From Candidatus Woesearchaeota archaeon (GTDB lineage Archaea > Nanobdellota > Nanobdellia > SCGC-AAA011-G17 > GW2011-AR17), in NCBI GenBank assembly GCA_964343245.1, contig CAYFIU010000010.1, positions 1-18,061 on the forward strand: DNA of 18,061 nucleotides, read 5' to 3'. Within the stretch, counting starts at the first letter, position 1; every line of letters begins with the position of its first letter. This document shows, one piece after another, positions 1-17,374 of this stretch. The notes beneath the pieces were generated by a model, which did not search any database, was not told the origin of the DNA, and saw only the letters and a program-made list of their open reading frames with translations. A program made the translations under genes and the position numbers.

Positions 1-135
1 GACGCAGGAAAATTCCTAGACACTTTTAATGATAAATTTGATTCTTTCTTAGGCGGTGGCCACGAAAAAGCAGGTGGTTTCACAATAGAAGAAAATGAAT
101 TTCCTCAACTTATAGAAATGTTAAAGGACTTTTGA
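1..135 (+). CDS. 3' end of a DHH/DHHA1-family phosphoesterase (RecJ-like/NrnA-like), partial
   Basis: Frame 1 reads DAGKFLDTFNDKFDSFLGGGHEKAGGFTIEENEFPQLIEMLKDF then TGA at 133-135. GGGH-x2-AGG is the characteristic DHHA1 C-terminal motif. The gene is truncated by the window edge. Confidence 0.6.
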   Translation, partial: DAGKFLDTFNDKFDSFLGGGHEKAGGFTIEENEFPQLIEMLKDF

Positions 136-1005
136 TTTTTTCTTGTTTATGAAAGCATGGCTTAACATATCTTTGTTATAACCACCAGGGACTTTGCCAT
201 TAGCTGCATATTCATACAAAGCAGTGTTAAAAATACTATTAGCAACACCAAATACCATTCCAATCAATATCACTAGGATTACAGTAATCATAATCAAAAC
301 AATTAAAGCAATAAAATTTCCAGTGAGAAACATCAGGAATCCTACAATACAAGCAGGCACTATAATAGCCATTGAAATCGCACCTTGTATAGCACCTAAT
401 CCAAAATGCCTAACTAAACTTTCGCCCCATGTTTTCTTCAAAACTTGAATTGACTTTTTTATAGCATCAAAAGGAGTCAAGTTGTCATACACCATTGCAG
501 GTACAACAAAGATTGTAACTATTGCCCAAGCCATACCAAGTACTCCTCGCAAAATATGCAACACAATCGCACCAACACCTTTACTTTTTCTAGCCATGTT
601 TTCCAACCCTCTTAATAAGATACCTACAGTTGCAGCTAGAAGGCTCCACATAGCAATCAAATGAATCTTAGACAGAGCAAACCCTAAAGTTTCCATAAAC
701 TTTGCATCACCACCAGCAAACCTTTTCTTTGCAGTGTACACAACACACACATTGAAAAAAGTTGCAATGAAAGCTAATCCAAAATAAATTACGAAAAATG
801 CTAGATACTCAAAAAATCCAAAAATTTGCACTTGGCCAGCTAAAATACTAGCAATCAATGTTGGAACTAATAAAACTAGGATAAACAATAAAGAGAATAC
901 AGAAGCTAGAATTGGATACCAGATCAACTCTTTATCCTCTTTCATCACATGAAAGGTTGTTTTGGTTATTTCCCAACTATTACTAAAAACTTCTTTAATA
1001 CCCAT
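121..1005 (-). CDS. Polytopic integral membrane protein of unknown function
   Basis: The ORF contains at least six long hydrophobic stretches, for example YPILASVFSLLFILVLLVPTLIASILAG and FIALIVLIMITVILVILIGMVFGV. The track ORF start at 1017 is TTG. In-frame ATGs occur at 1011 and 1005. A minus-strand TATA-like box (TTTTAAATA, plus coordinates 1029-1037) lies 23 nt from the ATG at 1005, so that start is preferred. Confidence 0.7.
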   Translation of the reverse strand: MGIKEVFSNSWEITKTTFHVMKEDKELIWYPILASVFSLLFILVLLVPTLIASILAGQVQIFGFFEYLAFFVIYFGLAFIATFFNVCVVYTAKKRFAGGDAKFMETLGFALSKIHLIAMWSLLAATVGILLRGLENMARKSKGVGAIVLHILRGVLGMAWAIVTIFVVPAMVYDNLTPFDAIKKSIQVLKKTWGESLVRHFGLGAIQGAISMAIIVPACIVGFLMFLTGNFIALIVLIMITVILVILIGMVFGVANSIFNTALYEYAANGKVPGGYNKDMLSHAFINKKKSKVL

Positions 1006-1079
1006 ACACATTTTCAAGATTATATCTTATTTAAAACTTTCCAATACTTTTATAAACAACTTATGAATTTTTTTATAGT

Positions 1080-1403
1080 ATGACAACTGAACTAAGGTTC
1101 CCTGTTACAAGAGGAACATTTATATGGTATGGGCAACAAGTTGAAGTTACAGCAAGATGCCCTGAAATAGATCCATCTTTTACATCTATAGATCGTCTAA
1201 GAGGTATACCAGCATTAGCAGGAACATCTCATAGGCATATAGTAGTATTAGGTTACATGGGGCCATATATTGTTGAAGATTCTAGAGGTGAAAGAATTCT
1301 CCAAAGAAGAAATTATTCAGGCCGTCAAGTAAATGCTTTAGAAAGAGAGGTTGGATTTTTTAGCGCAGTTTATAGAGTTCTCAAAGGTTGGCCAAAAAAG
1401 TAA
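1080..1403 (+). CDS. Hypothetical protein, 107 aa, Arg/Gly-rich
   Basis: ATG-initiated ORF. A TTTATAAA box at 1049-1056 ends 23 nt before the ATG, which matches the leaderless geometry of other genes here. No family recognised. Confidence 0.55.
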   Translation: MTTELRFPVTRGTFIWYGQQVEVTARCPEIDPSFTSIDRLRGIPALAGTSHRHIVVLGYMGPYIVEDSRGERILQRRNYSGRQVNALEREVGFFSAVYRVLKGWPKK

Positions 1404-1426
1404 TTCTAAATAAAAGGTAAAAAGAA

Positions 1427-2569
1427 TTAAAGCCTTCTAAGATGCAAAACAGCACCACCAATGAAAAGCACTGCAACAATTACGCTAAGCAACACTAACC
1501 AAAGGTTACTTTGTTCATCAACATCAACACTGAAAACTCTTTGTTCAACAAGGCCATCAGCTGAACTAACTTCTACAAGAACTTCCTGAAAACCTTCTTG
1601 CTCAGGAGTGATTGTAAACATCAACTCACCAGTCCTACCTTCTGAAACAGTAACAGAATCAGTGTAATCAATTTCATCCATACCATAGACAAACAAGTTA
1701 AACTCTTTAGACTCATCACCTAAGTTAGTCACTTGAACTTTAAACTCAGACTCTTGCCCAACTTGCAATCCACTAACTGAAGAAACTGAAATTATTGCAT
1801 CAAAATCATAAACAGTTGAATTACCTTCAACTCTTAACCATGAACTTTTCTCAACAGTTGTATAACCATTATCATACTCAACAAGAACATTAACTTCATA
1901 GTCACCTGACAAATCAGAAGGAACTACTAGGTATAGTGTCTCTGTTGACAGTTCGTCATCAGTCTCACTATCTTTAGCACCTAGTTCTTCCAAGTAGGCA
2001 GTACTTGAAACTCCATCCAATGAAACAGTAACTCTAATATCCTTTTCAAGATTCTCTCCAAGGTTCTCTAATCTGACTTTTACTCCTAAGTAATCTCCTG
2101 GTTCAACACTAGTTGAACTCAAAAGAACTTCTTTGATATCAACACTATGCCTTGGCTCTTCCATGTACAAGTCATATGAAACCATTTCAGTTGACTCATC
2201 ATCATAAACCTCAACATACAATGTGTAAGTATTATCTTCAACTTGTAAATCGCTTGGGATTTCTAGGTATAAATATTTTCTATAAGTTACACCATCTTCA
2301 ATGTCAAACATTTCAGTGGCATATTCAACACTACCATACTCATAACCACCCATCCAAACCCTAATATTGACATCTTCAGTCTCACCAAGACCTTCTAAGT
2401 CAACCACAATCTGAGCTGTAGTGCCTAATTCAACTTGAACTTGCCTATCAGTTGCTTCAATTCCATTAACATAAACATTTGTAATCTCATAGTTTGTAGA
2501 ATCAGCCACAACTAGGCTACTAAATAGCACAAAAGCCATTAGTATTGTTAATATCAATTTTTTCATCAT
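1427..2569 (-). CDS. Secreted, C-terminally membrane-anchored surface protein with CARDB-like beta-sandwich repeats (S-layer-like)
   Basis: N-terminal signal peptide MMKKLILTILMAFVLFSSLVVADS. C-terminal TM segment plus basic tail LWLVLLSVIVAVLFIGGAVLHLRRL. Acidic beta-rich modules repeat, with patterns such as LENLGENLEKDIRVTV and VPSDLSGDYEVNVLVEY. An AGAGGT SD-like site precedes ATGATG. Confidence 0.8.
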   Translation of the reverse strand: MMKKLILTILMAFVLFSSLVVADSTNYEITNVYVNGIEATDRQVQVELGTTAQIVVDLEGLGETEDVNIRVWMGGYEYGSVEYATEMFDIEDGVTYRKYLYLEIPSDLQVEDNTYTLYVEVYDDESTEMVSYDLYMEEPRHSVDIKEVLLSSTSVEPGDYLGVKVRLENLGENLEKDIRVTVSLDGVSSTAYLEELGAKDSETDDELSTETLYLVVPSDLSGDYEVNVLVEYDNGYTTVEKSSWLRVEGNSTVYDFDAIISVSSVSGLQVGQESEFKVQVTNLGDESKEFNLFVYGMDEIDYTDSVTVSEGRTGELMFTITPEQEGFQEVLVEVSSADGLVEQRVFSVDVDEQSNLWLVLLSVIVAVLFIGGAVLHLRRL

Positions 2570-2650
2570 TTTTGAACCTCTTTGAATGATATTCTAGCGC
2601 ATCTAATCATATATAAAGCTTTCTATTTGTTACTACTTCTCAAGAACAAA

Positions 2651-3205
2651 CTATTTTTGTTTAAGATCTAAATTTCCATAAATTTTGGGGCCTACCCCTG
2701 TTAAACAAACAGCCCTTATTTTGCCATATCTAGGGTATATTTCCAATCTAGTCCAGCCATCATCACCACAAACAGGTACATCAGGACTAGGCCAAGAATA
2801 TCGGATATCCAGAACAAGCCTTTCAGGATGTTCCAAATGATCTCCAAAATCAAAGCTGATACTATCCCAGCCAGTAATGCCATTTGCAGCTAACATCTCT
2901 GTATAAAGAGGAATTAACCTATTATTTCTATCTAATATATGTTGCTCAATCTCACCCAGCTCTTCAGCTTTATTATAATAATCAATCAAAGGTGCATATC
3001 TTTGTATAAGCCTAGAAATTCTGGGGAAAAAAGGTTCTGGATCAGGCTCAATACCATCACTAGCAAGTTCAGCCTTAGGTTTAAAACTAGCAGGTGTAAG
3101 ATCATCAAAAGGTTCTGGGTGAACAAGGTTTCTAACAAGTGCACATCCCGTTTGGCTAGCTAAAGCCACTGTTAACAAGCTTGCAGCAATTCTATTCCTC
3201 AACAT
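2651..3205 (-). CDS. Secreted or lipoprotein-like protein, paralog A of a tandem pair, unknown family
   Basis: Signal-like N-terminus MLRNRIAASLLTVALASQTGC, with the Cys at a lipobox-like position (imperfect lipobox). Alignable with the adjacent 170-aa ORF: FFPRISRLIQRY vs YFGRISDVIFRY, DHLEHPERLVLDI vs DHLLHTERLLVDV, RLEIYPRYGKIRAVC vs RLVIYPVDEAIEVYC. Confidence 0.7.
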   Translation of the reverse strand: MLRNRIAASLLTVALASQTGCALVRNLVHPEPFDDLTPASFKPKAELASDGIEPDPEPFFPRISRLIQRYAPLIDYYNKAEELGEIEQHILDRNNRLIPLYTEMLAANGITGWDSISFDFGDHLEHPERLVLDIRYSWPSPDVPVCGDDGWTRLEIYPRYGKIRAVCLTGVGPKIYGNLDLKQK

Positions 3206-3241
3206 GGAACAAAAAAATCTTTTCTGCCTTTTTAATAATTA

Positions 3242-3754
3242 TTATGGTGTAATAAGATGTAAAACACCAGCAGGAATAATTGATTTCCTTGCAGTTGGGC
3301 AATAAACTTCAATAGCTTCGTCAACAGGATAAATTACTAATCTAACTCTGCCTCTAACAGGACAACCATGATAAACATCTCCAGGCTCTTCTTGGTGCAC
3401 ATCAACAAGCAACCTTTCAGTGTGCAAGAGATGATCTTGACACTGCAAAACAAGGCCCCCACTAATATTAATTTCATTACTAATAAGATATTCTTTAATT
3501 ATAGGAACAATTTCAGCTTCAAGATCTTGCCTAGCCAGCTTTACTTTTTCAAAATCTCTATTTACACGATGCTCTATTATCTGTCCAGAATAACGAAATA
3601 TAACATCACTTATTCTTCCAAAGTAGGTTTGTGGTTCTTCAACAATTAAAGCTGATCCGTCCTCAGGCCTTTCACTGGTTTTTAGCATACCTCCAGCAAT
3701 AGAGGGTGCTAACAAACTCAAGCCTAAAACAATTGCAGTTAAACCCTTTCTCAT
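3242..3754 (-). CDS. Secreted protein, paralog B of the tandem pair, unknown family
   Basis: Signal peptide MRKGLTAIVLGLSLLAPSIAGG. Shares the blocks listed for 2651-3205, including two conserved Cys. A TTTTATATA box on the minus strand ends about 21 nt upstream of the ATG. Confidence 0.7.
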   Translation of the reverse strand: MRKGLTAIVLGLSLLAPSIAGGMLKTSERPEDGSALIVEEPQTYFGRISDVIFRYSGQIIEHRVNRDFEKVKLARQDLEAEIVPIIKEYLISNEINISGGLVLQCQDHLLHTERLLVDVHQEEPGDVYHGCPVRGRVRLVIYPVDEAIEVYCPTARKSIIPAGVLHLITP

Positions 3755-3802
3755 AGTTTCATCAAACCTAGTACTTGTATATAAAAGTTAAGAAAAAAAT
3801 AA

Positions 3803-4036
3803 TTATAAAAATTCTTTAGCTTTTTCCATTAAAGGCAAAACAGCTTCTACTTCTTCTTTAAGCATTCTACCTAATTTAGCAAAACTGTATTCACCAGCAG
3901 CATTTCTATTCTCTCTAGACAACTGCAACTTTGGTGTACCGTCATTATAAGCAAAAACTCCAACTGTAATCTTTGAGCTCTCAAACTCAACACTCTCTGA
4001 AAACAAATTCTTGTCCAAACTCTTGTCAAATGGCAT
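3803..4036 (-). CDS. Small PC4/YdbC-like (ssDNA-binding fold) protein, tentative
   Basis: The pattern AYNDGTPKLQLSRENRNAAGEYSFAKLGRMLKEEVEAVL resembles bacterial YdbC/PC4-like proteins (WNDAEPKYDIR...KGITLSEEEF). The track start at 4069 is TTG. The ATG at 4036 (MPFDKS...) has a CTAAATA box ending 20 nt upstream, so it is preferred. Confidence 0.5.
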   Translation of the reverse strand: MPFDKSLDKNLFSESVEFESSKITVGVFAYNDGTPKLQLSRENRNAAGEYSFAKLGRMLKEEVEAVLPLMEKAKEFL

Positions 4037-4108
4037 TTCTATCAACTCCCTATAGTTATTTAGAATCAAGAATTATTTGGTCTTTAAAAAACTTGTTAAA
4101 ATAAAAAA

Positions 4109-6172
4109 TTAAAAAATAGAGTTTAAAAACTCTTCTACATTATCCCAAAATGTCTTAACAATTGGTTCATGAACTTCATATTCAATAACATCAACCATAC
4201 TCTGTACATCTAAGTTGAAAACTCTTTCTTCATAGGTATCATCACTTTCAACAATAACTTTCAAACCATATCTGCCTGATTCCATGTCATCTGGAATTTC
4301 AATAGTGTATAGTGCAGTTTCACTGTCACTTCTATCCAAGTCAGGGAAAGCAGCATAACTATGTTCATCATCAAAGATGAAAGTTACCAAGATGTCTCTT
4401 GCATCAAAACTGTTTCTATTTTCCATTGTCATTGATAATACAATTTCATTATCAAGAGCAACATTTGAGAGTTGACCATTTGAGTATCTGTAGTTGCCTG
4501 AAACAGCAACATTAGCATCAAAGTTGTACCATGAAGCTAAGTCAGCAGCATTCATAACAAACATGTTTGTTACTCCAAGCATGTCACCTTCATAGTTACC
4601 AATTCCACTATGTGGGACTTCACAGGTTAACACATCATCAACTTTGATCTCAACAACTTGTGACACAACATACTCGCCATCTGAGATAGACACAGTCAAG
4701 TAATATCTACCTGCATCATCACACTCAGTTTGCCATGACCAAACATTGCCATTAACTGAACCATCTTCTAAACCTTCAAAAGTGTAAGTGATTGCATCTC
4801 CATCAACATCCCATGCATTAACTTCAATTTCAATGAACTCACCTTCATCAACATGAACATCTAAAATTTCATCCATTTCTGGAGGATTGTTAGTTACAAC
4901 ATAATCATCTAACACTTCAAAGTCAATTGTAACAGTTTGATCACACAAAACATCGCCATCACTCACAACCACTTCAATGCTGTATAAATCAGCATCTCCT
5001 TCAGCAGTTTGCCATGTAAAGATATTATCTTGAGTTGTTCCAACACTGTTAGTCCAGGTGTAAGTCAAAGGATCTCCATCTGCATCTAGTGCATCGATTT
5101 CAAATTCAACAAGATCAGTTTCATAGTATGTTCCAACTGTTACTGGCTGAACAACAGGACAATTATTCACTGGTCCAATAGTCTCTAACACTTCAAATGT
5201 TATTGTAACAGTTTGATCACACAGAACATCACCATCACTCACAACCACTTCTATGGTATAAGTCCCAGCATCTCCCACAGCTGTTTGCCATGTGAATGTA
5301 TTACCCTGAGTTGTCCCAACACTGTTTGTCCAAGTGTAAGTTAAAGGATCAAGATCTGGGTCAATAGCACCAACTGGAAGTGTTATAAGATCGCCTTCAT
5401 AGTATGTTCCAGGAACTGGTGCTGTAACAATAGGACAGTTATTTGTAACAACAGGAACATCATTAACTGTAACATAAACTGGAACCATTGTAATGGATTC
5501 ACCATCATCAATCTCAACCCAGTCAGTATAAACACCAGCATCATTACTATCAGTTAGCCAGTAGTATTCAGTAGTACCTGCAACCACATTTGATGTGCTT
5601 TCACCATCAAAACCAGATTGTCCATTCACTTCAATATCTAATGAATCACCATCAGCATCATAAATGTAAACAGTGTCATCATCACCAAACAAGCTAGCTA
5701 GATATTTAACAAGAAAATCAGCACTGCTACTAAGGACTTCAATCCTCATCTCAGCTGTGTCGCCTTCATCAACTTCAATTCTAGCACCTAAAGCCAAAGG
5801 AGCTTCATTTTGAGTTACTTGGCCTTCTAAAATTTCAACAGTTTCACTACCAATTTCTATTTCAATATAGGGAGGATATCCACCTGTATATTGTTCATAA
5901 GAAACAGTACAAGTCCAATCATCACCTGCACTCAGATATGAATCATCTACAGTTGCAGTGTTAATTCCTTGTTCATTACTATTCTTCTCCCAAGTATAAA
6001 TAGGCAAATTATTCCCTAAGTCAAAATCATAAAGACATTCAATGTCTTGATTATCGTAAGCCGGATCTGGCAAAATACTTACACCATCTCCATTACTATC
6101 TACAGCAGACACGCTAGCAAATAGTAAAAATACAAATAATACAAATATTGTTCCGATTGTTATTTTTTTCAT
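4109..6172 (-). CDS. Secreted multi-domain surface protein with cadherin-like repeats and a CARDB-like C-terminal region (putative adhesin)
   Basis: Signal peptide MKKITIGTIFVLFVFLLFASVSA. Three tandem modules of about 92 aa carry Ca-binding-type motifs AIDPDLDPLTYTW, ALDADGDPLTYTW and AWDVDGDAITYTF. An upstream related module carries IYDADGDSLDIEV. No C-terminal TM segment. It begins 16 nt after the preceding ORF ends, with a GAGGAG SD-like site, so it is probably co-transcribed. Confidence 0.85.
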   Translation of the reverse strand: MKKITIGTIFVLFVFLLFASVSAVDSNGDGVSILPDPAYDNQDIECLYDFDLGNNLPIYTWEKNSNEQGINTATVDDSYLSAGDDWTCTVSYEQYTGGYPPYIEIEIGSETVEILEGQVTQNEAPLALGARIEVDEGDTAEMRIEVLSSSADFLVKYLASLFGDDDTVYIYDADGDSLDIEVNGQSGFDGESTSNVVAGTTEYYWLTDSNDAGVYTDWVEIDDGESITMVPVYVTVNDVPVVTNNCPIVTAPVPGTYYEGDLITLPVGAIDPDLDPLTYTWTNSVGTTQGNTFTWQTAVGDAGTYTIEVVVSDGDVLCDQTVTITFEVLETIGPVNNCPVVQPVTVGTYYETDLVEFEIDALDADGDPLTYTWTNSVGTTQDNIFTWQTAEGDADLYSIEVVVSDGDVLCDQTVTIDFEVLDDYVVTNNPPEMDEILDVHVDEGEFIEIEVNAWDVDGDAITYTFEGLEDGSVNGNVWSWQTECDDAGRYYLTVSISDGEYVVSQVVEIKVDDVLTCEVPHSGIGNYEGDMLGVTNMFVMNAADLASWYNFDANVAVSGNYRYSNGQLSNVALDNEIVLSMTMENRNSFDARDILVTFIFDDEHSYAAFPDLDRSDSETALYTIEIPDDMESGRYGLKVIVESDDTYEERVFNLDVQSMVDVIEYEVHEPIVKTFWDNVEEFLNSIF
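4634..5443 (-). repeat. Three tandem ~276-nt (~92-codon) intragenic repeats encoding cadherin-like domains
   Basis: Copies 1 and 2 are visibly similar at DNA level. Compare 4921-5160 with 5207-5445, for example aacagtttgatcacaca[a/g]aacatc[g/a]ccatcactcacaaccacttc. Copy 3 is conserved at protein level only. Confidence 0.8.
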
Positions 6173-6188
6173 TTTTGACTACTCCTCA

Positions 6189-8432
6189 TCACCTTCCCCA
6201 AGTCCAGGTTGATCGTAAATGTAATTCTCCATTACCTAAAGCACCACCTTTCATGTCAACTGGTGCATCACTAACCATATATAGATCTAAAGGTGCAAAT
6301 GATCCACCCAATTCAATCCTCCAAGCCCTTCCTTTAACTGGTGGTACAAGTGCAAGATCTGCCCCAACACTTAATCTGTGGCCTACTCCATTTTGTTCTG
6401 GAACATTACCATCAGCTGCTATAGTTGTACCTTCACCTTGATACTCTGCATAAGGCATAAAGACAATTCCAGGATGATCTTCTGTAAGAGTTATCCCTAA
6501 AGCTTCCATTTCACCTGGTTCTCTACCAAATTCAAAACCTAATCTTACATTTCCTAAGTGAGTAAGAGAGTTTGAATTAGCACCAAAATCACCAAAAGTT
6601 GTACTAACATCAACTGTCTGTGCTTGTGGTAACCTTGAGTATCTTCCTGCTACCTGTAATGCAACCTCAGGGTGTAAGAAAACCATAACATTAGCTCCAG
6701 CATATCCACCAAGACCTTCTGCAGAAGTTCTTGAAGTTACATCTTCACTGACCTCTTGTCTACTACCCATCTGATGGTACAAAGCTCCACCTTCAAGGTC
6801 CAGCAAAACTGTATCTCCTAACAAGAATTCTAAGCCTCCACCAAAATCAATATCAGCATTAAATGCTCTACTTCTTTCTAGAGTTCCACCAACGGGAGCA
6901 CCAGCTTTAACTTGTGCTACAAGGTATGGTCTCATACCATTTTCATCATCAAATGCAATATGTCCAGGAGTTAATCCTAGATTAAATAATCCATACAACT
7001 GCATCAATCTATCCCTTTGTTCACCTTCAGGCATCTCTGGATCTGCATAAGTAACAGCCATTCCTTTATTAACAAACTGTAATCCTACTCCGGCACCATT
7101 CCCAGCTCTTGCTAAAACAGCATATGGTCTTGGAAAAGCTCTTGCTGGACCTGTGCCTCTAGGAGGTGCATGGCCTGGAACAAATGTAGGTCCAAAACTA
7201 TGCTCAGTAGGCCCACCACCAACTACATCTGGCTCATCATCGTCATCTCTATGATCATATTGAGGAGCATCAAGTTCCCAGTCTACACTTGAATCATCAT
7301 CATCATCCCCATCAAATCCACCAGCAGCACTGTCATCATCATCTCCATCCAACCAACTTTCATCGTCAGCAGAGTCATCATCATCAGCTGCATTATTAGC
7401 GTCAATTCTTTCTCTAATTAAATCTTCAAGACTTTCATCATCATCATCGTCACCAGTATCATCATCACCTGGTGCATCTGCTATTGCAATTTCACTAGGT
7501 TGTTCATACATACTTAATGGGATCCAAACAGGAGCATATCTACCTTCTGCATCAGAAGCAACTAACTGATCACCAACAAAACCATCTGCTCCACTAAATA
7601 CCTCTCCAGTAAAACAATCTACATTCTCAGTGTCACTCATGTAACCAAAAACTAAATTATTTCCTATTACTTCCCAAAGTGCATCTTGAGGTGTATCTGA
7701 TAATGCTGCTTGAGCAGATCTTACAAACATTGCAGACTGATGCATGATTTCATTTACTCTTGCACCAATTCTAGGATCACATCCACAACCAAAGATTTCG
7801 CTATCTGCTAAACCTAAGCTTTTTCCAGCATGGTACCACACAGTTTGCTTAGCATCACCTGCTTCCTTTGCACGAAGATCAATAAAAGCTCTCCTATAAC
7901 CACTAGGAACAGGCCCCATAAAAGGATTTCCAGCCTCCTCTTGAGCACTAGCTTGAACAGCAGGAGCATTAACTCCAGCAAAAGCAACTAATCCAGCAAC
8001 ACCAGTTCCAACAGCACCAACAGCTCTAGCAGGAGTCATCCCATCTAAAGCAGCTTCTAAACTTTCACCAATTCTAGAAAGCAAACTTTCTCCTGTATTA
8101 GCTTGAGAATCTCTTTGATAAGCAGTTAAACCCTCGTCTCCAACTTCTGTCAAATAAGCTTTAGCCATTTGAAAACCTTCTGCTTTAGCATATACTGTCA
8201 TGTCCTTCAAAGTCGCTCTTTCATCAGGAGTTATAGCTAAATCAACTAAATTAGCTCCAACCTCTCTAACATCTTTATTACCATACGCCAATGCAACAGA
8301 AGCTACATTTCTTATATCTTCGCCATCAGGAGCATACTTTCTAAGCTCTCTAAGAGTAGTATCTTTAACTGCTTTAGCCTCAGCTAGAACAGCCTTTCCT
8401 GCATTTTTTATAGAATTATACATTTTTGTCAT
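6189..8432 (-). CDS. 747-aa mosaic protein of unknown family: helical N-domain, Ala/Gly hydrophobic segment, poly-Asp spacer, beta-strand-rich C-terminal half
   Basis: Long ATG ORF with a GAGGT SD-like site (plus 8443-8447) 10 nt upstream. No N-terminal signal peptide. Hydrophobic segment AVGAVGTGVAGLVAFAGVNAPAV (about 7953-8027). Acidic region at about 7230-7475. The C-terminal ~310 aa show alternating hydrophobic/polar strands rich in Gly and end in STWTWGR. Confidence 0.8.
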   Translation of the reverse strand: MTKMYNSIKNAGKAVLAEAKAVKDTTLRELRKYAPDGEDIRNVASVALAYGNKDVREVGANLVDLAITPDERATLKDMTVYAKAEGFQMAKAYLTEVGDEGLTAYQRDSQANTGESLLSRIGESLEAALDGMTPARAVGAVGTGVAGLVAFAGVNAPAVQASAQEEAGNPFMGPVPSGYRRAFIDLRAKEAGDAKQTVWYHAGKSLGLADSEIFGCGCDPRIGARVNEIMHQSAMFVRSAQAALSDTPQDALWEVIGNNLVFGYMSDTENVDCFTGEVFSGADGFVGDQLVASDAEGRYAPVWIPLSMYEQPSEIAIADAPGDDDTGDDDDDESLEDLIRERIDANNAADDDDSADDESWLDGDDDDSAAGGFDGDDDDDSSVDWELDAPQYDHRDDDDEPDVVGGGPTEHSFGPTFVPGHAPPRGTGPARAFPRPYAVLARAGNGAGVGLQFVNKGMAVTYADPEMPEGEQRDRLMQLYGLFNLGLTPGHIAFDDENGMRPYLVAQVKAGAPVGGTLERSRAFNADIDFGGGLEFLLGDTVLLDLEGGALYHQMGSRQEVSEDVTSRTSAEGLGGYAGANVMVFLHPEVALQVAGRYSRLPQAQTVDVSTTFGDFGANSNSLTHLGNVRLGFEFGREPGEMEALGITLTEDHPGIVFMPYAEYQGEGTTIAADGNVPEQNGVGHRLSVGADLALVPPVKGRAWRIELGGSFAPLDLYMVSDAPVDMKGGALGNGELHLRSTWTWGR

Positions 8433-8482
8433 TTTATTGTCAACCTCGCGAGTATCAATGCTTTCTAGAAAACAACATTCCC

Positions 8483-8490
8483 TTTATAAA
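8483..8490 (-). promoter_or_regulatory. Candidate TATA box (TTTATAAA, palindromic) for the 747-aa/687-aa operon
   Basis: Lies 50 nt upstream of the ATG at 8432. This predicts a leader of about 25 nt that contains the GAGGT SD. It is the only clear TATA-like element between 8433 and 8520 on this strand. Confidence 0.4.
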
Positions 8491-8562
8491 TATTTCCTTT
8501 TGGTCACAACTTCGGAGTGATAGCAACAATTATAAATACTACAAAATTTCCACCATTTCACC

Positions 8563-8784
8563 ATGGGAAAGGTTCATACAAGAACAAAAAGAAAATTTAG
8601 TAGAAGTACACATTTAGGTAGTATTAAAAATGGTTCTAGAACTCGAAAAGCAAGACAAAAAAGTTTTAGCTCTGAAGAGATCGCAAAAAAATGGGCAGAA
8701 GCTCAAGGCATTAAAAAATTCGAATTAAAAAATCGAAGACCTGAATATGCTTCAAAGAAAAAAATAATTATTATTCAAAAGTAA
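8563..8784 (+). CDS. Small highly basic protein, 73 aa, unknown function
   Basis: ATG ORF rich in Lys/Arg (MGKVHTRTKRKFSRSTH...). A TTATAAATA box at 8530-8538 ends 24 nt before the ATG. The stop abuts the stop of the convergent 475-aa gene. No family recognised. Confidence 0.5.
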   Translation: MGKVHTRTKRKFSRSTHLGSIKNGSRTRKARQKSFSSEEIAKKWAEAQGIKKFELKNRRPEYASKKKIIIIQK

Positions 8785-10212
8785 TTATTCAAACAGACTT
8801 TCTTTCTTTTTTGGAATTAATACATAAATCAGTAATAATACCACAATTAAGATCAAAAGCACAGTTGCTAAAAACTTCAAATAATTTAATGTAGATGCAT
8901 AAACCATTTCTATTTCATCACTAACAACACTATCATTAGCAGGTTCAGCGCTTTCATTAATCACTGGTTCATCATCAACAGGTTCTTCAACAATCTCATC
9001 AATTGTCAATGTAAAAGTTGAAACAACACTTGAATTAACATGCCCATCATCCCAAACATAAACACTATCAGTGTAAACTCCAGATTCTTCAGGCACCCAA
9101 TCTAAAGAATATGTCCCACTATAAATAACATATTCACCATCGCTGGCAAAGCCTGACTCTCCTTCAATTCTAAAGTAAATACCATCACCTTCTTTATCGT
9201 AAACATATATGTTGTGGTCAACCCTAAACAAGTTAGCCCAGAAATATGTAAACCAGTTTTCTTTAACTTCAACACTTAGAACAACACTTTCATCAACAAT
9301 GCCATTAATATCTTTTGTATCAACTTTTGGTGCTTTGTTAACATAGACTTCTTCTTCCTCAGTGTCGTCAGTGCTATCAACTATTGTAACCTCAATAACA
9401 GGTTCCTCTTCCTCTACTTCTTCTTCCTCAGTTTGATCCTCTTCTTCTTCAGTCTCTGGTTCATCATCAACAGCTTCAAACAAGTTATCCCAAAAACTGT
9501 CCTCTTCTTCCTCAGAAACATCTAAAATAAACTCTTCTTCATCTTCAACATTACCAACATAAGTAATAAAGGTAGCTGCACTAACATCGTCAACATGCTG
9601 ATCATCCCAGACATAAATAGTATCAGTGTAAACACCAACATCATCTTCATCAACAATCCAACCAAGAGCATAAACACCTTCATATTCATAGACTAAATCA
9701 GTAACAAACCCAGAATCTCCCTCGATACTAAAGTATAAATCATCACCATCTGCATCATAGATAAAAACATTTTCTTTGGTTCTGAAAACTGTTGCAAACC
9801 AATAACTAAGATAATTATTCTTAACTTCAATAGTTAAAATAGCAGTATCACCAACTTCAACTTCAGTGCTACTCTCTTTAACAATAGGAGCACTATTAAT
9901 CATAATTGGCTCAAGCACAATAGGCAAATCTTCCTCTACAGACTCTTCAACCTCTTCTTCTTCAGTTGTTTCATCAATAATCTCTACTTCAACTTCCTCT
10001 TCAACATCGTCAAATCCGCAACAACATCTCTCAAGAGCATCACAAGAAAGTATACCTATGTCTTCTTCACCTTCTGTACAAAATTGTTCCTCGCTCACAG
10101 CTTCACACAAGCCATAATCAAAACCTAAACTAAAACAAGTATCTTGGCATGAGTTTGCAACAACAAAAGGTAATAATAGTAAAATAACCCCCACTATTAG
10201 CCAGCTTTTCAT
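8785..10212 (-). CDS. Secreted, C-terminally anchored surface protein: Cys-rich N-domain, poly-Glu linkers, two cadherin-like modules
   Basis: Signal peptide MKSWLIVGVILLLLPFVVA. Eight-Cys segment SCQDTCFSLGFDYGLCEAVSEEQFCTEGEEDIGILSCDALERCCCG. Two ~115-aa modules with IYDADGDDLYFSIEGDSGF and VYDKEGDGIYFRIEGESGF. C-terminal TM segment FLATVLLILIVVLLLIYVLIPKKK. Confidence 0.85.
   Translation of the reverse strand: MKSWLIVGVILLLLPFVVANSCQDTCFSLGFDYGLCEAVSEEQFCTEGEEDIGILSCDALERCCCGFDDVEEEVEVEIIDETTEEEEVEESVEEDLPIVLEPIMINSAPIVKESSTEVEVGDTAILTIEVKNNYLSYWFATVFRTKENVFIYDADGDDLYFSIEGDSGFVTDLVYEYEGVYALGWIVDEDDVGVYTDTIYVWDDQHVDDVSAATFITYVGNVEDEEEFILDVSEEEEDSFWDNLFEAVDDEPETEEEEDQTEEEEVEEEEPVIEVTIVDSTDDTEEEEVYVNKAPKVDTKDINGIVDESVVLSVEVKENWFTYFWANLFRVDHNIYVYDKEGDGIYFRIEGESGFASDGEYVIYSGTYSLDWVPEESGVYTDSVYVWDDGHVNSSVVSTFTLTIDEIVEEPVDDEPVINESAEPANDSVVSDEIEMVYASTLNYLKFLATVLLILIVVLLLIYVLIPKKKESLFE
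8998..9900 (-). repeat. Two copies of a ~115-codon module separated by an acidic linker; a third copy is in the 687-aa gene (5462-5809)
   Basis: Protein-level alignment: NSAPIVKESSTEVEVGDTAILTIEVKNNYLSYWFATVF...GVYTDTIYVWDDQHV against NKAPKVDTKDINGIVDESVVLSVEVKENWFTYFWANLF...GVYTDSVYVWDDGHV against NEAPLALGARIEVDEGDTAEMRIEVLSSSADFLVKYLASLF...GVYTDWVEIDDGES. Confidence 0.7.
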
Positions 10213-10319
10213 AGCTTTGAAAATAAGAATTATCTTTATAATGATTATTGTATTTAGAAGGTTATTATTAATTACCCTGACTACAAATTTATATAAATAA
10301 AAGACTAATTCTTAATTTT

Positions 10320-11108
10320 ATGTTAAAACCAACAAGACGAGAAGTGAGTTTATCTTTTCTAATTTCCTTGTGCAGTTTAGCACTACCTATAAGAGCACGA
10401 GCTGATCATGATAATAATATATTAAGTGGTCCATTTGGTAGAGGAGAAGTGCCTTATGAAGTTGATTTTGAAGGTGGAATTTATTATGATGTTTGGTATG
10501 ATGAATACAAAGCACTAAGAAGGAGTCAGAATACCTATGGTGGTTGTGAATTATTCTTAACACCAAAGAACCACACCATGTTTAACCAATCTTCAATTAT
10601 AGTAAGAGATACTGAGCCTTCATTAACAAGATTGACCGATAGAATAGTTGCTGGCTTATCAACACAAGAGCAAAAAGCTCAAGAATTATTTGACTTTGTT
10701 ACAACAGCTATAAGATTTGAAAGCATTGACCATCCTAAAAAACCTCATGAGATTTTGATTGATAGAAAAGGTGATTGTACTGAAAAATCTACTCTTCTTG
10801 CTTCTCTATTAGAGCAGGTAGATATCCCTTATTGTTTGTTATATTTTAATCCAGAACTTTCAGAAATTGGCCATGCTAATGTAGGTATTCCTGGAAATTT
10901 CAGTGGTAGGAGTTGCACAATGTTCGAATATCAAGGGGTAACTTATACAATAGTAGAAATTGCTATACCTGGGTCTATTGGATCATCCACAATCCCAATG
11001 AACTTATTAGAACTTGCTACTACCCGTAATATAAGTTACATACAGCTACCAGGTGAACAAATTGTTGATTTCAAAACAGAACAACCATTGGATTGTTACA
11101 ATCCTTAG
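10320..11108 (+). CDS. Secreted transglutaminase-like cysteine protease/transglutaminase superfamily protein
   Basis: Hydrophobic signal-like N-terminus. Core pattern AQELFDFVTTAIRFE...RKGDCTEKSTLLASLLEQVDIPYCLLY...IGHANVGIPG matches the transglutaminase-core arrangement (G-x-C nucleophile, downstream His). ATATAAATA at 10291-10299 ends 20 nt before the ATG. Confidence 0.7.
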   Translation: MLKPTRREVSLSFLISLCSLALPIRARADHDNNILSGPFGRGEVPYEVDFEGGIYYDVWYDEYKALRRSQNTYGGCELFLTPKNHTMFNQSSIIVRDTEPSLTRLTDRIVAGLSTQEQKAQELFDFVTTAIRFESIDHPKKPHEILIDRKGDCTEKSTLLASLLEQVDIPYCLLYFNPELSEIGHANVGIPGNFSGRSCTMFEYQGVTYTIVEIAIPGSIGSSTIPMNLLELATTRNISYIQLPGEQIVDFKTEQPLDCYNP

Positions 11109-11144
11109 TAAACCTATATAAATAATAGCTTATTAAATATACAC

Positions 11145-11867
11145 ATGAAACCATTTTGGCCAGCAGTTAACAAAGTAATCAAAGAATCACACATTATAAT
11201 AGAAGTATTAGATGCAAGATTCCCAGAGTTCACTAGAAATGTAGAGATTGAAGATAAGATAAAGAACAAAATCTTAATCCTTGTTCTAAACAAATGTGAT
11301 TTAGTTAATAAGAAAGAGATAGAAGCTTATGCAAAAAAACACAATGCTATTTTTGTCTCTGCAAGAAAAAGGTTAGGCACAACAATGTTAAAGAAAAAGA
11401 TAATCTCATATTCAAAAGGTTTCAAAACTGTTGTTGGTGTTATGGGCTATCCAAACACAGGAAAGAGTTCTTTGATCAATGCACTAGCTGGTCGTAAAGC
11501 AGCAAAAACTTCTCCTGAATCTGGTTACACAAAAGGCAGACAACTAATAAAAATGGCACAGGGTGTTTATTTGTTAGACACACCTGGTGTTTTTCCTTAC
11601 AAAGAAAAAGATGAAGTTAAACATTCATTGACAGCAAGTAAAGATTTCACAAAAATAAAAGATCCAGACTTAGTTGCAATGGAACTTATTGAATTAAAAA
11701 AAGATTTGATTAAAAAGTTTTACAAACTAAAATCTTCAGACCCTGAAGAGATGTTAGAAGAGTTGGGACAAAAGTTTGGCAAATTAAAAAAAGGTGGTAT
11801 TGTCGACATGGACGCCACTTCAAAAGTTCTTTTGAAAGATTGGCAAAGAGGCAAGATTAAAGTTTAA
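11145..11867 (+). CDS. Circularly permuted GTPase of the YlqF/YawG (RbgA-like) family, probable ribosome-biogenesis GTPase
   Basis: G4 NKCDL (aa 49-53) precedes G1 GYPNTGKSS (aa 101-109) and G3 DTPG (aa 145-148); that is the permuted order. An AAACCTATATAAATA box at 11110-11124 ends 20 nt before the ATG. Confidence 0.85.
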   Translation: MKPFWPAVNKVIKESHIIIEVLDARFPEFTRNVEIEDKIKNKILILVLNKCDLVNKKEIEAYAKKHNAIFVSARKRLGTTMLKKKIISYSKGFKTVVGVMGYPNTGKSSLINALAGRKAAKTSPESGYTKGRQLIKMAQGVYLLDTPGVFPYKEKDEVKHSLTASKDFTKIKDPDLVAMELIELKKDLIKKFYKLKSSDPEEMLEELGQKFGKLKKGGIVDMDATSKVLLKDWQRGKIKV

Positions 11868-12750
11868 CATACCTAACTTTCTGAGGAGAAAGGGTTACTG
11901 GTCCACCATACTTAACTGTTTCTCCATCAAGAATAAAACTTCCACCATTAATAATAAGTTGACTAGCACTTCTGTTTATTGGTGCTGAAAGATTTTGACC
12001 CAATATGCCTTCTTTAATCATCTTAATCATTAATTTTCTATCAAAGCTTCCTGCTAAAACATGTAAATCCTTTTCATGTGGAAACTTAAAGGCATCTACT
12101 AAACCAACTGGCATAGCATAAACAAATACCCAATGCATATCTCTTGTTATAGTTTCATCAGGAAACTCTAAAGTCATTGGAAACTCTTCGAATATTTCTC
12201 TATAAGCAGTTTTAAAAACTTCTCTTCCTAAAAATCCAGCAATACCTCTTGCAACCAATGCTTTTGCTGCAAGTTCACCAGGAGTTTGATCATACCTTTC
12301 AAAGAAGTTAGTTACAATCCCATTTGAAAAACTAAGACCAAATCTTGTTTGGCCACCATAGTCCACTTTTACTAAATTTCTTTCTACAACATCTACATGA
12401 TCTAATGCAAGAGTTTCTTCTATAGTTTGCAAAGGATGATTTCTGCTATGGCCCACAGCAACTCCATGCATTCCAACAGTTCCTCCATTAACAAGCACTA
12501 CTGGAGGGATCTGGTCTAGACTATATTGATTTAAACCAGCTGTAAAAACATCAGAACCAGTTGTATCACCACCGATAATCATCATTATGTCTGGATCTCT
12601 TTCAACAACCTCTTGCATCACTGCTGGATAACTCTCTCTACTTGGAGCAACAATATGGGAACGATAAGGTAGAACACCTTCAATTTCAGCTAAAAAACCT
12701 CTACTATTTCTTCCAGCTTTAAGATTACTTATTGCAACAATATCTAGCAT
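11857..12750 (-). CDS. Diacylglycerol-kinase-catalytic-domain / NAD-kinase-fold lipid kinase-like protein
   Basis: The N-terminal Rossmann-like segment carries IMMIIGGDTTGSDV, a variant of the GGDGT motif of the DAGK_cat/NAD kinase fold. A minus-strand TTTAAATA box (plus 12773-12780) ends exactly 22 nt upstream of the ATG. The 3' end overlaps the GTPase gene by 11 nt. Confidence 0.6.
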   Translation of the reverse strand: MLDIVAISNLKAGRNSRGFLAEIEGVLPYRSHIVAPSRESYPAVMQEVVERDPDIMMIIGGDTTGSDVFTAGLNQYSLDQIPPVVLVNGGTVGMHGVAVGHSRNHPLQTIEETLALDHVDVVERNLVKVDYGGQTRFGLSFSNGIVTNFFERYDQTPGELAAKALVARGIAGFLGREVFKTAYREIFEEFPMTLEFPDETITRDMHWVFVYAMPVGLVDAFKFPHEKDLHVLAGSFDRKLMIKMIKEGILGQNLSAPINRSASQLIINGGSFILDGETVKYGGPVTLSPQKVRYVKL

Positions 12751-12775
12751 AAAAACACAGAAAAATAACTACTAT

Positions 12776-12931
12776 TTAAATTATATCATTAATCATCTTA
12801 TTAATTTCATCATCCCTTTTGCAAGTGTATGACTTTCCACAGTATGGACAGAGTTTTCCATTCCAATTCCTAGCTCTTCTAAACCTATACCTACAATCCT
12901 CACAAATAAAGCTAGACATTTCTTCTTCCAT
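12776..12931 (-). CDS. 51-aa zinc-ribbon protein (not in supplied ORF track)
   Basis: Manual translation of the minus strand gives MEEEMSSFICEDCRYRFRRARNWNGKLCPYCGKSYTCKRDDEINKMINDII then TAA. The CxxC-x14-CxxC spacing is typical of a zinc ribbon. A GTTAAAAAA box ends about 22-23 nt upstream of the ATG. Confidence 0.6.
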   Translation of the reverse strand: MEEEMSSFICEDCRYRFRRARNWNGKLCPYCGKSYTCKRDDEINKMINDII

Positions 12932-12985
12932 GTATTATATAATGCTTAACTTGTTTTTTAACTTTTCCAAACTAGAATTATATAA

Positions 12986-13234
12986 TTAGGCCCTCAATTC
13001 TTCCCCAGTTAAGCCCTCTGTCCTTGTTGTCAAATAATATAATGGGTGTAGAGTTTCATTTTGATAAACACCAATACCAATAACTTCAGAACCATTTCTG
13101 GCACAATAAGATTCTAAGGCTTGCGCGTCATCAATGATTTGACATGCAAAAGCTTCAATTTCAATTGGAGTTGGATCAAATTCTTCTAACCCTTCATTAT
13201 CAATCATCTCAGAAAGGTCATCTACTCTATACAT
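12986..13234 (-). CDS. Hypothetical acidic protein, 82 aa
   Basis: ATG ORF. A minus-strand TTTAATAAA box ends 22 nt upstream of the ATG. No family recognised. Confidence 0.55.
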   Translation of the reverse strand: MYRVDDLSEMIDNEGLEEFDPTPIEIEAFACQIIDDAQALESYCARNGSEVIGIGVYQNETLHPLYYLTTRTEGLTGEELRA

Positions 13235-13325
13235 AAACTATTATTTTGTTCAATTCTTTATTAAATTTATCTAAATTCTAAAACACAATAATACTTAAAT
13301 ATTAATATAATTAATTATATATAGT

Positions 13326-13679
13326 ATGGCAGACCTAGTAGCATGTCTTTCAACAGGCAAAGGAACTTGGACAGAAGTAAAGAAATTAATCCACAATCAA
13401 GATTGGGATAATATATACTTGATAACAAATGACTTTGGTAAAGACAAATTTACAGCAGACAAAGAGCTTAAGTTTATTCTAGTGGATGTTAACTCTGGTA
13501 TGGATTCTATGAAAAAGATTATCATGGAAGCTTTACGAGACAAAGTGAAAACAGAGGTTGCAGTAAATTTTATTTCAGGATCAGGCAAAGAACACATGGC
13601 AGTATTGTCAGCATTGTTCAAACTTGGTGTAGGAATAAGGTTCATAATTCCAACAGATTCTGATGTGAAAGAGTTATAG
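13326..13679 (+). CDS. Hypothetical small alpha/beta (Rossmann-like) protein, 117 aa
   Basis: ATG ORF with ACTTAAATA at 13293-13301 ending 24 nt upstream. The sequence alternates between strand-like and helix-like segments (LVACLSTGKG, NIYLITN, FILVD, AVNFISGSGKEHMAVLSAL, RFIIP). It is preferred over the antisense ORF 13397-13720. Confidence 0.6.
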   Translation: MADLVACLSTGKGTWTEVKKLIHNQDWDNIYLITNDFGKDKFTADKELKFILVDVNSGMDSMKKIIMEALRDKVKTEVAVNFISGSGKEHMAVLSALFKLGVGIRFIIPTDSDVKEL

Positions 13680-13709
13680 AGACTTTTTAGATGTATTATA
13701 GTGATAACC

Positions 13710-14543
13710 TTATCTATCACCTAGAACAATTTTTACTCTATAAGTTGCACCTTTTCCTGGTTCAAGCACTGAAAATTCACCTTCATCAAAGTATTTTGCA
13801 CCTGGCTCAATTGGATTAACTACAGGTTCCATACAAACAGGTCCAGTATTTTCAGGGACCCATAAAACCATATCTGTAAAACTATCTGCTGGTGTCCAAA
13901 CTTTGATCTTTCTTGCTTGATCACCAAGGTAAACAATTTCATTACAATTTTTTTCAACCCTCACTTCATTAGGTGATTCTAAAACGTCATCTAAACTACA
14001 AATCCATTGACCATGGCTATCAAGGAAAACCCCTTGATCAACCTCACCTTGTATTTGAAAACCAGGATGCCAACCAAAATTATAAGCCATTGGCCCAGTA
14101 CCATTATTTACAACTGAAAAAATAGCAGTTAAATTATGTTGCCTTAAATTAAAGATTTTTCTTAGATGAAAAGGCATGTAAGTCATTGTATCAGGATGTC
14201 CCTTCCTGCCTGTTTTTGGGTTAGGGATAGGATCACCACGATAAAATTGATCAAGTGTTACTCCTTCATGAAAATACTCTACAACTTTCCAGGGTAAAGC
14301 TCTTGATAACCCATGCTGATCAACATCATAAGTCTGACCACTAAAAACAACTTGATGATTATTTGAACGACCAAAAATTGGAAAACAAGTTATTTCAGAA
14401 GCCCTCCAGGCTGAATCTTCAGAATCAGATCTTCCACCATCATGCATAAATTCAACACCTTCTTCCTTTAAAGATACAAGCTGACCATTATCTGAATTAA
14501 CTAAAGCTTCTGTTCCTCCTGCCTTCATTTGTAAGAGTGTCAT
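13710..14543 (-). CDS. Aldose 1-epimerase (galactose mutarotase-like) family protein
   Basis: Family hallmarks appear in order: CFPIFGR, QHGLSRALPWKVV, FGWHPGF, VCMEPV. An ATATATAAA box ends about 21 nt upstream of the ATG on the minus strand. Confidence 0.85.
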   Translation of the reverse strand: MTLLQMKAGGTEALVNSDNGQLVSLKEEGVEFMHDGGRSDSEDSAWRASEITCFPIFGRSNNHQVVFSGQTYDVDQHGLSRALPWKVVEYFHEGVTLDQFYRGDPIPNPKTGRKGHPDTMTYMPFHLRKIFNLRQHNLTAIFSVVNNGTGPMAYNFGWHPGFQIQGEVDQGVFLDSHGQWICSLDDVLESPNEVRVEKNCNEIVYLGDQARKIKVWTPADSFTDMVLWVPENTGPVCMEPVVNPIEPGAKYFDEGEFSVLEPGKGATYRVKIVLGDR

Positions 14544-14625
14544 ACATTCAACTTTCTAATACTTCTTTATATATTTTCCTAATACCATCAAAAAGCATTT
14601 AAACCTTCTAAACCAAAACAAAAAC

Positions 14626-15639: not shown

Positions 15640-15805
15640 GGTTATTTCTTTATTCTGACGGCTGTCCTAGCAAATAAAAGCACCTTCTCCAATATATATA
15701 CCACAGTATCAAGTGAGTGACAGTGACATGGGTGCGCGCAGCGCTTATAAACACTTCCAACTATACTAATTGTAAGTCAAATTAAAACTTAATGGAGGTG
15801 GAAAT

Positions 15806-15952
15806 ATGTTGAGAACTAGCGGGAGCTATATCCAATGGACACAATACAAACAAAGAGTAAACCAACTAGAAATGTTACATTTCTTGCATACAACAACTCT
15901 CCAGTCTGCTAAAAACTACTGGAAGAAGAAAGGAGGTGATAACTATGTTTAA
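15806..15952 (+). CDS. Tiny ORF a, 48 aa, basic (MLRTSGSYIQWTQYKQRVNQLEMLHFLHTTTLQSAKNYWKKKGGDNYV)
   Basis: The ATG is preceded by GGAGGTG (15794-15800) with a 5-nt spacer. The stop overlaps the start of the next tiny ORF (ATGTTTAA). Below the length cutoff of the ORF track. Coding status unproven. Confidence 0.4.
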   Translation: MLRTSGSYIQWTQYKQRVNQLEMLHFLHTTTLQSAKNYWKKKGGDNYV

Positions 15953-16040
15953 GACAGAATTCATTGAACAAGTATTCAGCCAAACCTTGAGAGAACTACC
16001 AACAGAAAGAAAGGAGGTGAGACCATGGCAGAGATTTTAA
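15945..16040 (+). CDS. Tiny ORF b, 31 aa (MFKTEFIEQVFSQTLRELPTERKEVRPWQRF)
   Basis: The ATG is preceded by GGAGGTG (15932-15938) with a 6-nt spacer. It overlaps ORF a by 8 nt and ORF c by 16 nt. Coding status unproven. Confidence 0.35.
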   Translation: MFKTEFIEQVFSQTLRELPTERKEVRPWQRF

Positions 16041-16135
16041 CAATCTATGAAGAAGAAGATTTAAACAAGCTTCTAGAAGAAGAAGTAATAGACGACTTTG
16101 AAGAAGCATTCATGCGAGGTTATCTAGCGGGATAA
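16025..16135 (+). CDS. Tiny ORF c, 36 aa, strongly acidic (MAEILTIYEEEDLNKLLEEEVIDDFEEAFMRGYLAG)
   Basis: The ATG is preceded by GGAGGTG (16013-16019) with a 5-nt spacer. The extended 13-mer AGAAAGGAGGTGA is shared with ORF b. The stop overlaps the first bases of the next promoter box. Confidence 0.4.
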   Translation: MAEILTIYEEEDLNKLLEEEVIDDFEEAFMRGYLAG

Positions 16136-16145: not shown

Positions 16146-16167
16146 CTTTTTTTCTTTGTTTAAACAC

Positions 16168-17250: not shown

Positions 17251-17262
17251 AAATCCATAATG

Positions 17263-17373: not shown

Positions 17374-17374
17374 A

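Follow-up and report, generated by a model that had tools for sequence, protein, structure and literature searches.

How does an archaeon come to carry, next to an adhesin gene, a gene for a protein whose C-terminal half has the look of a bacterial outer-membrane beta-barrel? The question is raised by an 18,061-nucleotide (nt) stretch of DNA, below called the window, from a Candidatus Woesearchaeota archaeon (GenBank assembly GCA_964343245.1, contig CAYFIU010000010.1, positions 1 to 18,061), a Tara Oceans mesopelagic scaffold from the 0.1-0.22 µm size fraction. The gene lies at 6189-8432 on the minus strand and, as the initial annotation of the window had it, is an open reading frame (ORF) of 747 amino acids (aa); it starts with ATG, and its stop codon is at 6189..6191. 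We think it fairly probable that it is a highly divergent member of an uncharacterised family of envelope proteins of the Woesearchaeota (DPANN), with a C-terminal domain (C-domain) related to OMP_b-brl of the MBB clan. Judged by comparison with its relatives, it has been changed in the window lineage by addition of a helical extension of 131 aa, by replacement of the linker with poly-Asp and Pro/Gly stretches, and by divergence far faster than that of the neighbouring genes.

Searches with the protein itself had made it appear an orphan. Neither the whole protein nor its parts matched anything in Pfam, NCBIfam, PHROGs or the PDB sequences, and there was no match to profiles of known pore-forming toxins, phage proteins or defence systems in the first three of these. 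A word-indexed search of 5.8 billion proteins with the full-length sequence returned only itself, and patterns derived from it had no match in JGI metagenomes or viral contigs. Exhaustive phmmer over 1.84 billion cluster representatives gave itself and one other protein, P0003, and a profile of the two found nothing further. P0003 (256 aa, 33-37% identical to aa 3-239) is encoded on a 1.67-kb Logan contig (L005, from SRR27205368) in the same gene order as in the window. Its last seven residues and stop codon lie in Illumina adapter sequence (AGATCGGAAGAGCGTCGTGTAGGGA, L005:1640-1666), so it is a truncated fragment, and we rejected it as a naturally short homologue. No paper tying DPANN or Woesearchaeota to such a family was found in literature full text. 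The statement in the initial annotation that no known family could be recognised thus stands for Pfam, NCBIfam, PHROGs and the PDB; orphan status does not, since the protein proves to be a divergent member of a family in the Woesearchaeota.

That family was recovered by synteny. About 130 nt upstream of the gene, and divergent from it, is the gene for a very basic protein of 73 aa (8563..8784, plus strand), which served as anchor and retrieved a JGI metagenome contig (L006) and ten loci from GTDB genomes (L007-L016), the latter mostly labelled Candidatus Woesearchaeota or Nanoarchaeota. The 73-aa protein is 51-90% identical in L005-L016, and its gene and the start of the family gene are always about 125-135 nt apart. 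The order in every locus that is long enough is a GTPase gene, the gene for a small Cys-rich anchored protein and the 73-aa gene, then on the opposite strand a gene for a protein of 478-561 aa followed by an adhesin gene (690-871 aa where complete). All nine loci with enough sequence have the 478-561 aa protein at the position of ours (L006:8403-9875, L007:5141-6607, L008:5067-6575, L009:2580-4043, L010:1263-2843, L011:1131-2588, L012:1375-3060, L013:8299-9864 and L016:8445-9881) and an immunoglobulin-like (Ig)/PKD adhesin after it. The 73-aa protein, which contains MGKVHTRTKRKF and SEEIAKKWAEAQGIK, has no Pfam match, and gave none when searched against viral contigs.

The adhesin gene of the window (4109..6172, minus strand) encodes 687 aa with a signal peptide and Big_9/PKD repeats (Pfam E 5.8e-14 for Big_9 and 9e-7 for PKD) and no membrane anchor. 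It starts 16 nt past the stop codon of our gene, the spacing given in the initial annotation, and has a GGAG-type Shine-Dalgarno motif. The pairing of the two genes, also proposed there, holds wherever a related locus reaches far enough: the seven loci measured have gaps of 3-43 nt, and in two more the predicted ORFs overlap. The adhesins of these loci are orthologous to that of the window (37% identity) and have in common a C-terminal ...F[LF]xx[LI]F ending, which in the window is ...FWDNVEEFLNSIF. None of the orthologues in L006-L016 has a membrane anchor, and in all of them, as in the window (4109-4180, minus strand), the protein ends in an amphipathic motif of the form [FL][WK][DE]x[VLI]xx[FL][FL]xx[LI]F-COOH, which may be a docking or sorting signal. 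A word-indexed search with the N-terminal 235 aa of the window adhesin (5468-6172) found no match, not even itself although it is called on ENA contigs, and this is apparently a limitation of the index.

The nine counterparts all have the same layout, of signal peptide, an N-terminal domain (N-domain) of about 130 aa with two conserved cysteines, a linker that is Pro/Val/Glu-rich and variable in length, and a C-domain of 250-280 aa that is Gly-rich, Cys-free and made of short amphipathic strands. L012 (1375-3060, minus strand) carries in addition a Big_9/PKD-like Ig domain inserted in the linker (Pfam Big_9, E 6.4e-8).

By sequence comparison the 747-aa protein is a very divergent member of this unnamed family, homologous to it in both domains, and its gene is flanked, as in all nine loci, by the divergent 73-aa gene on one side and the co-directional adhesin gene on the other. 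For the C-domain, BLASTP aligns aa 548-692 with aa 314-436 of the L011 protein at 27% identity (E 3e-6 to 3e-5), and Smith-Waterman z-scores, computed against 1000 shuffles, are 10.75 with L011, 8.75 with L012 and 3.3 with L007. For the N-domain they are 6.2 (L010), 5.4 (L011) and 4.7 (L008). Hidden Markov models (HMMs) were built without the window protein and searched against the ORFs of 80 aa or more from all loci, 250 in number, and in both cases it was the top ORF outside the family, with E 0.006 against 0.18 for the next with the N-domain model, and E 0.0012 against 0.14 with the model of one of two types of C-domain, type A. In our alignments (A6, A7 and A9) collinearity extends over the whole length, signal peptide to final strand, and the C-domain is of type A, collinear with those of L011, L012 and L007. 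The N-domain has the motifs QTVW..A, (G)C-D/S-P...N-x-I, C...DG-x-x-GD and P-V-x-IP in common with the family. The comparison with L006, the first counterpart found, which has the other type of C-domain, was not significant pairwise (z 0.25), and hhalign of the single sequence against a mixed family alignment gave a probability of only 2%.

The alignments also give the segments of the protein their place. The Ala/Lys/Glu-rich N-terminal extension (aa 1-131, 8040..8432, minus strand, as are all segments here) is helix-prone and has no hydrophobic stretches, in agreement with the initial annotation. It is followed by a signal-peptide-like segment (aa 132-162, 7947..8039), predicted to be a Sec signal or signal-anchor, which reads MTPAR, AVGAVGTGVAGLVAFAGV and NAPAVQA, then SAQEE. 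Its hydrophobic part, AVGAVGTGVAGLVAFAGVNAPAV (aa 137-159, nt 7956-8024; best 19-residue Kyte-Doolittle mean 1.60), is where it was said to be, and can now be seen to align with the signal peptides with which family members begin (GILSVIGAGLVTPTYA|QEG is one), M132 being placed on the initiator Met. A reading of this Ala/Gly-rich segment as a viral fusion peptide was rejected, as it aligns with signal peptides.

The family N-domain follows at about aa 175-312 (7497..7910). The GCGC at aa 215-218 is at the position first given, but is not a motif of its own as it includes one of the two family cysteines: C218, its second Cys, and C273 align with the conserved pair (A7). The disordered linker (aa 313-436, 7125..7496) is composed of an acidic spacer, in which 3-5 Asp in a row occur exactly six times (aa 323-399, nt 7236-7466), and then a Pro/Gly stretch (aa 414-436, nt 7125-7193). 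The positions and the six runs are as first described, and the poly-Asp and Pro/Gly stretches are now better seen as a variant of the family's Pro-rich linker, whose place they occupy. The C-terminal all-beta domain (aa 437-747, 6192..7124), of type A and probably an OMP_b-brl-like beta-barrel, has 15% Gly and no Cys in its 311 aa, and a crude count of dyad repeats puts its short, amphipathic, strand-like segments at about 15. No internal repeats were found in the protein.

The suggestion that the C-terminal half is barrel-like is supported in part, and indirectly, through matches of homologues and of consensus sequences. The only Pfam similarities of the family C-domains are to bacterial outer-membrane beta-barrels. 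Single members match OMP_b-brl (PF13505) with E 2.1e-5 and 25.2 bits (L011), E 1.4e-5 and 25.8 bits (L012) and E 0.0048 and 17.5 bits (L016), and the match extends to the final profile position and the final residue. Most of the other weak matches are also to outer-membrane barrel families, namely OMP_b-brl_2, BBP2_2, Opacity and Channel_Tsx. The consensus of the HMM for the second type of C-domain, type B, reaches 34.7 bits with OMP_b-brl (E 2.6e-8), above the gathering cut-off of 28.7 bits, and E 0.003 with Phenol_MetA_deg. The type-A consensus, which includes our protein, gives 24.8 bits (E 2.8e-5) with OMP_b-brl and E 1.7e-4 with BBP2_2; with Autotransporter (PF03797), the model of the 12-strand translocator domain, it has only E 0.12 and 12.6 bits, and it is not assigned to that family. 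The whole-family consensus gives 24.6 bits over OMP_b-brl profile positions 22-175. When member sequences were reversed, which keeps composition and alternation, no match was better than E 0.13. The beta-signal of such barrels is a last amphipathic strand that closes with an aromatic residue, as a rule Phe. In five of the nine members an amphipathic strand is followed by a terminal Phe or Trp, and our protein ends in LHLRSTWTWGR, with an aromatic at position -3. On these similarities an outer-membrane-type barrel fold for the C-domain is likely.

There are also observations that weigh against a barrel. The C-domain of the window protein has no Pfam match even at E 10 and is not assigned to PF13505, so that its link to OMP_b-brl is transitive, through homologues of 27-34% identity. 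These single homologues are themselves below the Pfam gathering score, only the type-B consensus being above it, and the reversed control was made only on single sequences. PDB sequence and profile searches with the window protein, L006, L011, L012 and alignments A5, A6, A8 and A9 gave no meaningful match, and the profile searches found no outer-membrane protein. AlphaFold2 run without an alignment gave no usable fold, the predicted local distance difference test score (pLDDT) being 35 over the whole protein and 30 over the C-domain. Strands in which hydrophobic and polar residues alternate fit soluble beta-sandwiches as well. The organism is presumably single-membrane, and to our knowledge insertion machinery of the type of the beta-barrel assembly machinery (BAM) is not known from any archaeon.

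The locus is further marked by fast and mosaic evolution. Identity to L005 is 90% for the 73-aa protein and 78% for the upstream protein, but only 37% for our protein, and at the DNA level it collapses about 60 nt into the gene of the latter, which thus evolves much faster than its surroundings. The neighbouring GTPase divides the loci into the clades {L007, L008, L009}, {L011, L012, L013}, {L006, L016} and L010, with the window organism as outgroup at 53-56% identity to all of them. However, C-domain type A is found in L007, L011, L012 and the window, and type B in L008, L009, L010, L013, L006 and L016, so that both types occur inside single GTPase clades. The N-domains are also discordant, that of L012 being nearer to L007/L008/L009 than to L011, and that of L011 nearest to L013. 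It is clear from this mixing that the locus exchanges domain cassettes, and the word mosaic in the initial annotation was well chosen, as N- and C-domains have different histories across the relatives. Cassette exchange together with very fast divergence is the pattern expected under selection by an external partner.

We propose the following for the function, on the basis of predicted features and gene arrangement. The internal signal sequence (aa 132-162) would direct the protein to the Sec translocon, with the extension staying in the cytoplasm and the N-domain, acidic stalk and beta-domain outside. Cleavage after AVQA162 would release these, while if the segment were uncleaved the product would be a tethered type II membrane protein. 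The barrel-like domain, as the working end on a flexible stalk, would be kept off the cell by that acidic stalk and by the N-domain, in which a disulfide bond is probable, and might there insert in a lipid layer or dock the C-terminal amphipathic motif of the anchorless Ig/PKD adhesin. Since neither the cleaved family proteins nor the adhesins have an anchor of their own, and their genes are always coupled, we suggest that the protein and its putatively co-transcribed adhesin form a cell-surface contact module. The domain swapping and fast divergence would point to a partner outside, which could be a host cell, a virus or a substrate.

The main alternative to a barrel is that the C-domain is a soluble beta-sandwich or lectin-like binding domain on the acidic stalk, with the outer-membrane matches arising from its Gly-rich alternation, and that the protein is then an ordinary secreted or tethered surface protein. 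We think this a minority possibility, but one to be taken seriously. It would account for the lack of a Pfam match for the window protein and of any outer-membrane protein in the PDB searches, it suits a presumed monoderm, and the adjoining genes do encode Ig-like, CARDB and other surface domains. Reversed sequences also draw weak outer-membrane matches (E 0.13-0.22), so the pattern alone contributes something. However the forward matches are about 10^4 better than those of the reversed controls, and the type-B consensus exceeds a curated cut-off. Most of the weak matches of the C-domains, and all of those with E below 0.1, are to membrane-barrel families and none is to a sandwich family, and the match reaches the end of the profile and of the protein, where there is an aromatic residue as in outer-membrane proteins.

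If the similarity to bacterial outer-membrane barrel families is accepted, one may ask if the gene is simply bacterial, through contamination or recent transfer of an outer-membrane protein gene. Its G+C is above that of the flanks, and one related record, L008 (JAUYPF010000034.1), is titled 'MAG: bacterium'. This explanation is already contradicted and we find it hardly credible. The identical ORF is present on four independently assembled marine contigs, the longest of 57.8 kb, and is thus not an assembly artefact, and in all four assemblies it shares its contig with an archaeal Orc1/Cdc6 gene (14626-15639 in the window). The G+C of the window is about 33-36% and climbs locally to 0.42 over the gene, but only at codon positions 1 and 2, so that the rise is due to the Ala/Gly/Asp content. 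G+C at the third position (GC3) is 0.16, against 0.16-0.33 in the adjoining genes, AGA makes up 79% of Arg codons, and codon choice for Arg, Gly, Ala and Leu is like that of the neighbours. The locus is syntenic across at least four clades of Woesearchaeota, and phmmer over the 1.84 billion representatives found no bacterial relative. L008 itself is syntenic with genes 86-91% identical to those of Woesearchaeota loci, and its label is probably wrong. We therefore rejected contamination or recent horizontal transfer: the gene is native, as the host-like codons had been taken to indicate.

There remain the start site and the nature of the action at the surface. It could be argued that the true start is M132, giving an ordinary signal-peptide precursor, with the upstream 131 codons a separate or regulatory frame or part of an alternative long isoform, and there is something to be said for this. 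The nine family members lack aa 1-131 and begin directly with the signal peptide, in the alignment M132 falls precisely on the Met at which every one of them starts, and is conserved in P0003, and MTPAR, h-region and APAVQA make up a canonical signal peptide. However there is no stop between M1 and M132 in two species that are only about 37% identical, and the extension is kept in this frame and conserved at the protein level in P0003 on L005 (tblastn aa 3-95, 36% identity, E 1.3e-12). The GC3 of the extension is 0.16, and a Pfam search with it gave no match. The motifs DGMTPxR and APA[VI] of the signal-peptide-like segment are also conserved in P0003. A TATA-like TTTATAAA (8484-8491, minus strand) and a Shine-Dalgarno-like GAGGT (8443-8447, minus strand, 10 nt before the ATG at 8432), which we read from the sequence as putative expression signals, precede M1, and nothing comparable to this GAGGT is found before the M132 codon. 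The distance to the divergent 73-aa gene, at about 130 nt, is unchanged by the extension and matches that in the relatives, placing the promoter upstream of M1. We thus regard a start at M132 as unlikely. In-frame conservation, unchanged spacing and the signals before M1 are most simply explained if the extension is real and a lineage-specific addition, with the predicted effect that what was a cleavable signal peptide acts as an internal signal or as an anchor. As to action, the family proteins could be secreted pore-formers, putatively self-inserting after cleavage in a host or competitor membrane held by the adhesin, and forming a channel for nutrients or for killing. The outer-membrane-like C-domain, the lack of an anchor on cleaved members and adhesin, and the fast evolution and domain swapping, as in contact or toxin systems, are all in keeping with this. 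On the other side there is no similarity to known families of pore-forming toxins in Pfam, NCBIfam or PHROGs, no host is known, and the protein of the window lineage may remain tethered; we consider it improbable.

A bolder proposal is that these presumably single-membrane Woesearchaeota make outer-membrane-type barrels without BAM, which are exported by Sec, insert by themselves in a host membrane or in a hypothetical outer layer, and there anchor the adhesin or work with it. We put it forward as speculation that is more likely wrong than right. Under it, and just as tentatively, the locus could be the archaeal counterpart, split over two polypeptides, of adhesion by intimins or autotransporters, its N and C cassettes being swapped to follow the host. 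The cytoplasmic extension of the window lineage might also couple the module to the cell interior, and here too we would not claim much.

Other features of the locus may be recorded here. The window also encodes several secreted proteins of Ig-like, CARDB and transglutaminase types, and no tRNA or Rfam features were found in it. Downstream of the adhesin gene are genes for two small secreted proteins of 184 and 170 aa (2651-3205 and 3242-3754, both minus strand), which look paralogous by eye, one of them with a lipobox-like ...TGC. Neither has a family match, and the relatives carry other small lipoprotein-like genes in their place. At 8785-10212 (minus strand) is a gene for a protein of 475 aa, the start of which resembles the Cys-rich, C-terminally anchored proteins of about 130-170 aa that relatives have in this position. 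It is enlarged by two copies of a domain that it has in common with aa 122-217 of the adhesin (BLASTP E 2e-13 and 2e-9). A gene for a DUF6159 membrane protein (121-1017, minus strand) is intact in the window and in L002, but split into two ORFs (184 and 106 aa) in L001:17419-18303 and L003:12183-13067, a strain-level frameshift or an assembly difference. A tblastn search of plasmids with the type-B consensus gave no match.

What had appeared to be an orphan is now part of a definable family of at least 11 sequences, which makes alignment-based structure prediction and experiments possible. The locus documents cassette-like domain exchange at a single position, and probably also a rare evolutionary event, the burying of a signal peptide behind a new N-terminal domain of 131 aa. 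Membrane-spanning beta-barrels of the outer-membrane type count as a distinguishing mark of diderm bacteria and of the organelles descended from them. If our preferred reading of a barrel-like family is right, a native family locked to an adhesin would be a molecular candidate for the means by which uncultured and probably symbiotic archaea touch or breach partner cells, and one would then have to ask by what means such a barrel could fold in the absence of BAM.

With regard to known systems, the family has not been named before, and the closest known kind, on the strength of remote homology, appears to be the bacterial barrels of OMP_b-brl and the MBB clan. OMP_b-brl proteins are small outer-membrane beta-barrels of diderm bacteria. 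The family resembles them in the signal peptide, the Gly-rich, Cys-free domain of amphipathic strands and, in five of nine members, the aromatic end. It differs in being archaeal, in having an N-domain and long linker before the barrel-like domain, and in the size of that domain, 250-300 aa against a model of 175 positions, which would imply extra strands; the window protein itself does not score. Barrel-like proteins in such archaea have been glimpsed before, as PopA of Bdellovibrio, from a porin-like lipid-trapping superfamily, has a possible distant relative in the DPANN Altiarchaeales (PMC12228718). By description, PopA is a barrel protein of a contact-dependent parasitic lifestyle, as ours may be, but it is in a true outer membrane. 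An uncleaved product would, with its N-terminus inside, its C-terminus outside and a cytoplasmic-type domain of 131 aa, be arranged as are type II membrane proteins such as bacterial anti-sigma factors; there is however no sequence similarity to these, and neither a partner nor a family is known for the extension.

In domain order the nearest systems, by analogy, are the type V autotransporters and intimins. Classical autotransporters have a passenger, a linker and a C-terminal barrel, and in intimin and invasin a barrel is joined to Ig-like adhesin domains. The family has the corresponding signal peptide, N-terminal domain, linker and C-terminal beta-domain of about 250-300 aa, and the beta-domain protein is paired with an Ig/PKD adhesin. 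However here the adhesin is made as a polypeptide of its own, signal peptide included, POTRA and LysM domains are absent, the Autotransporter model is approached only at E 0.12, and the organism is an archaeon.

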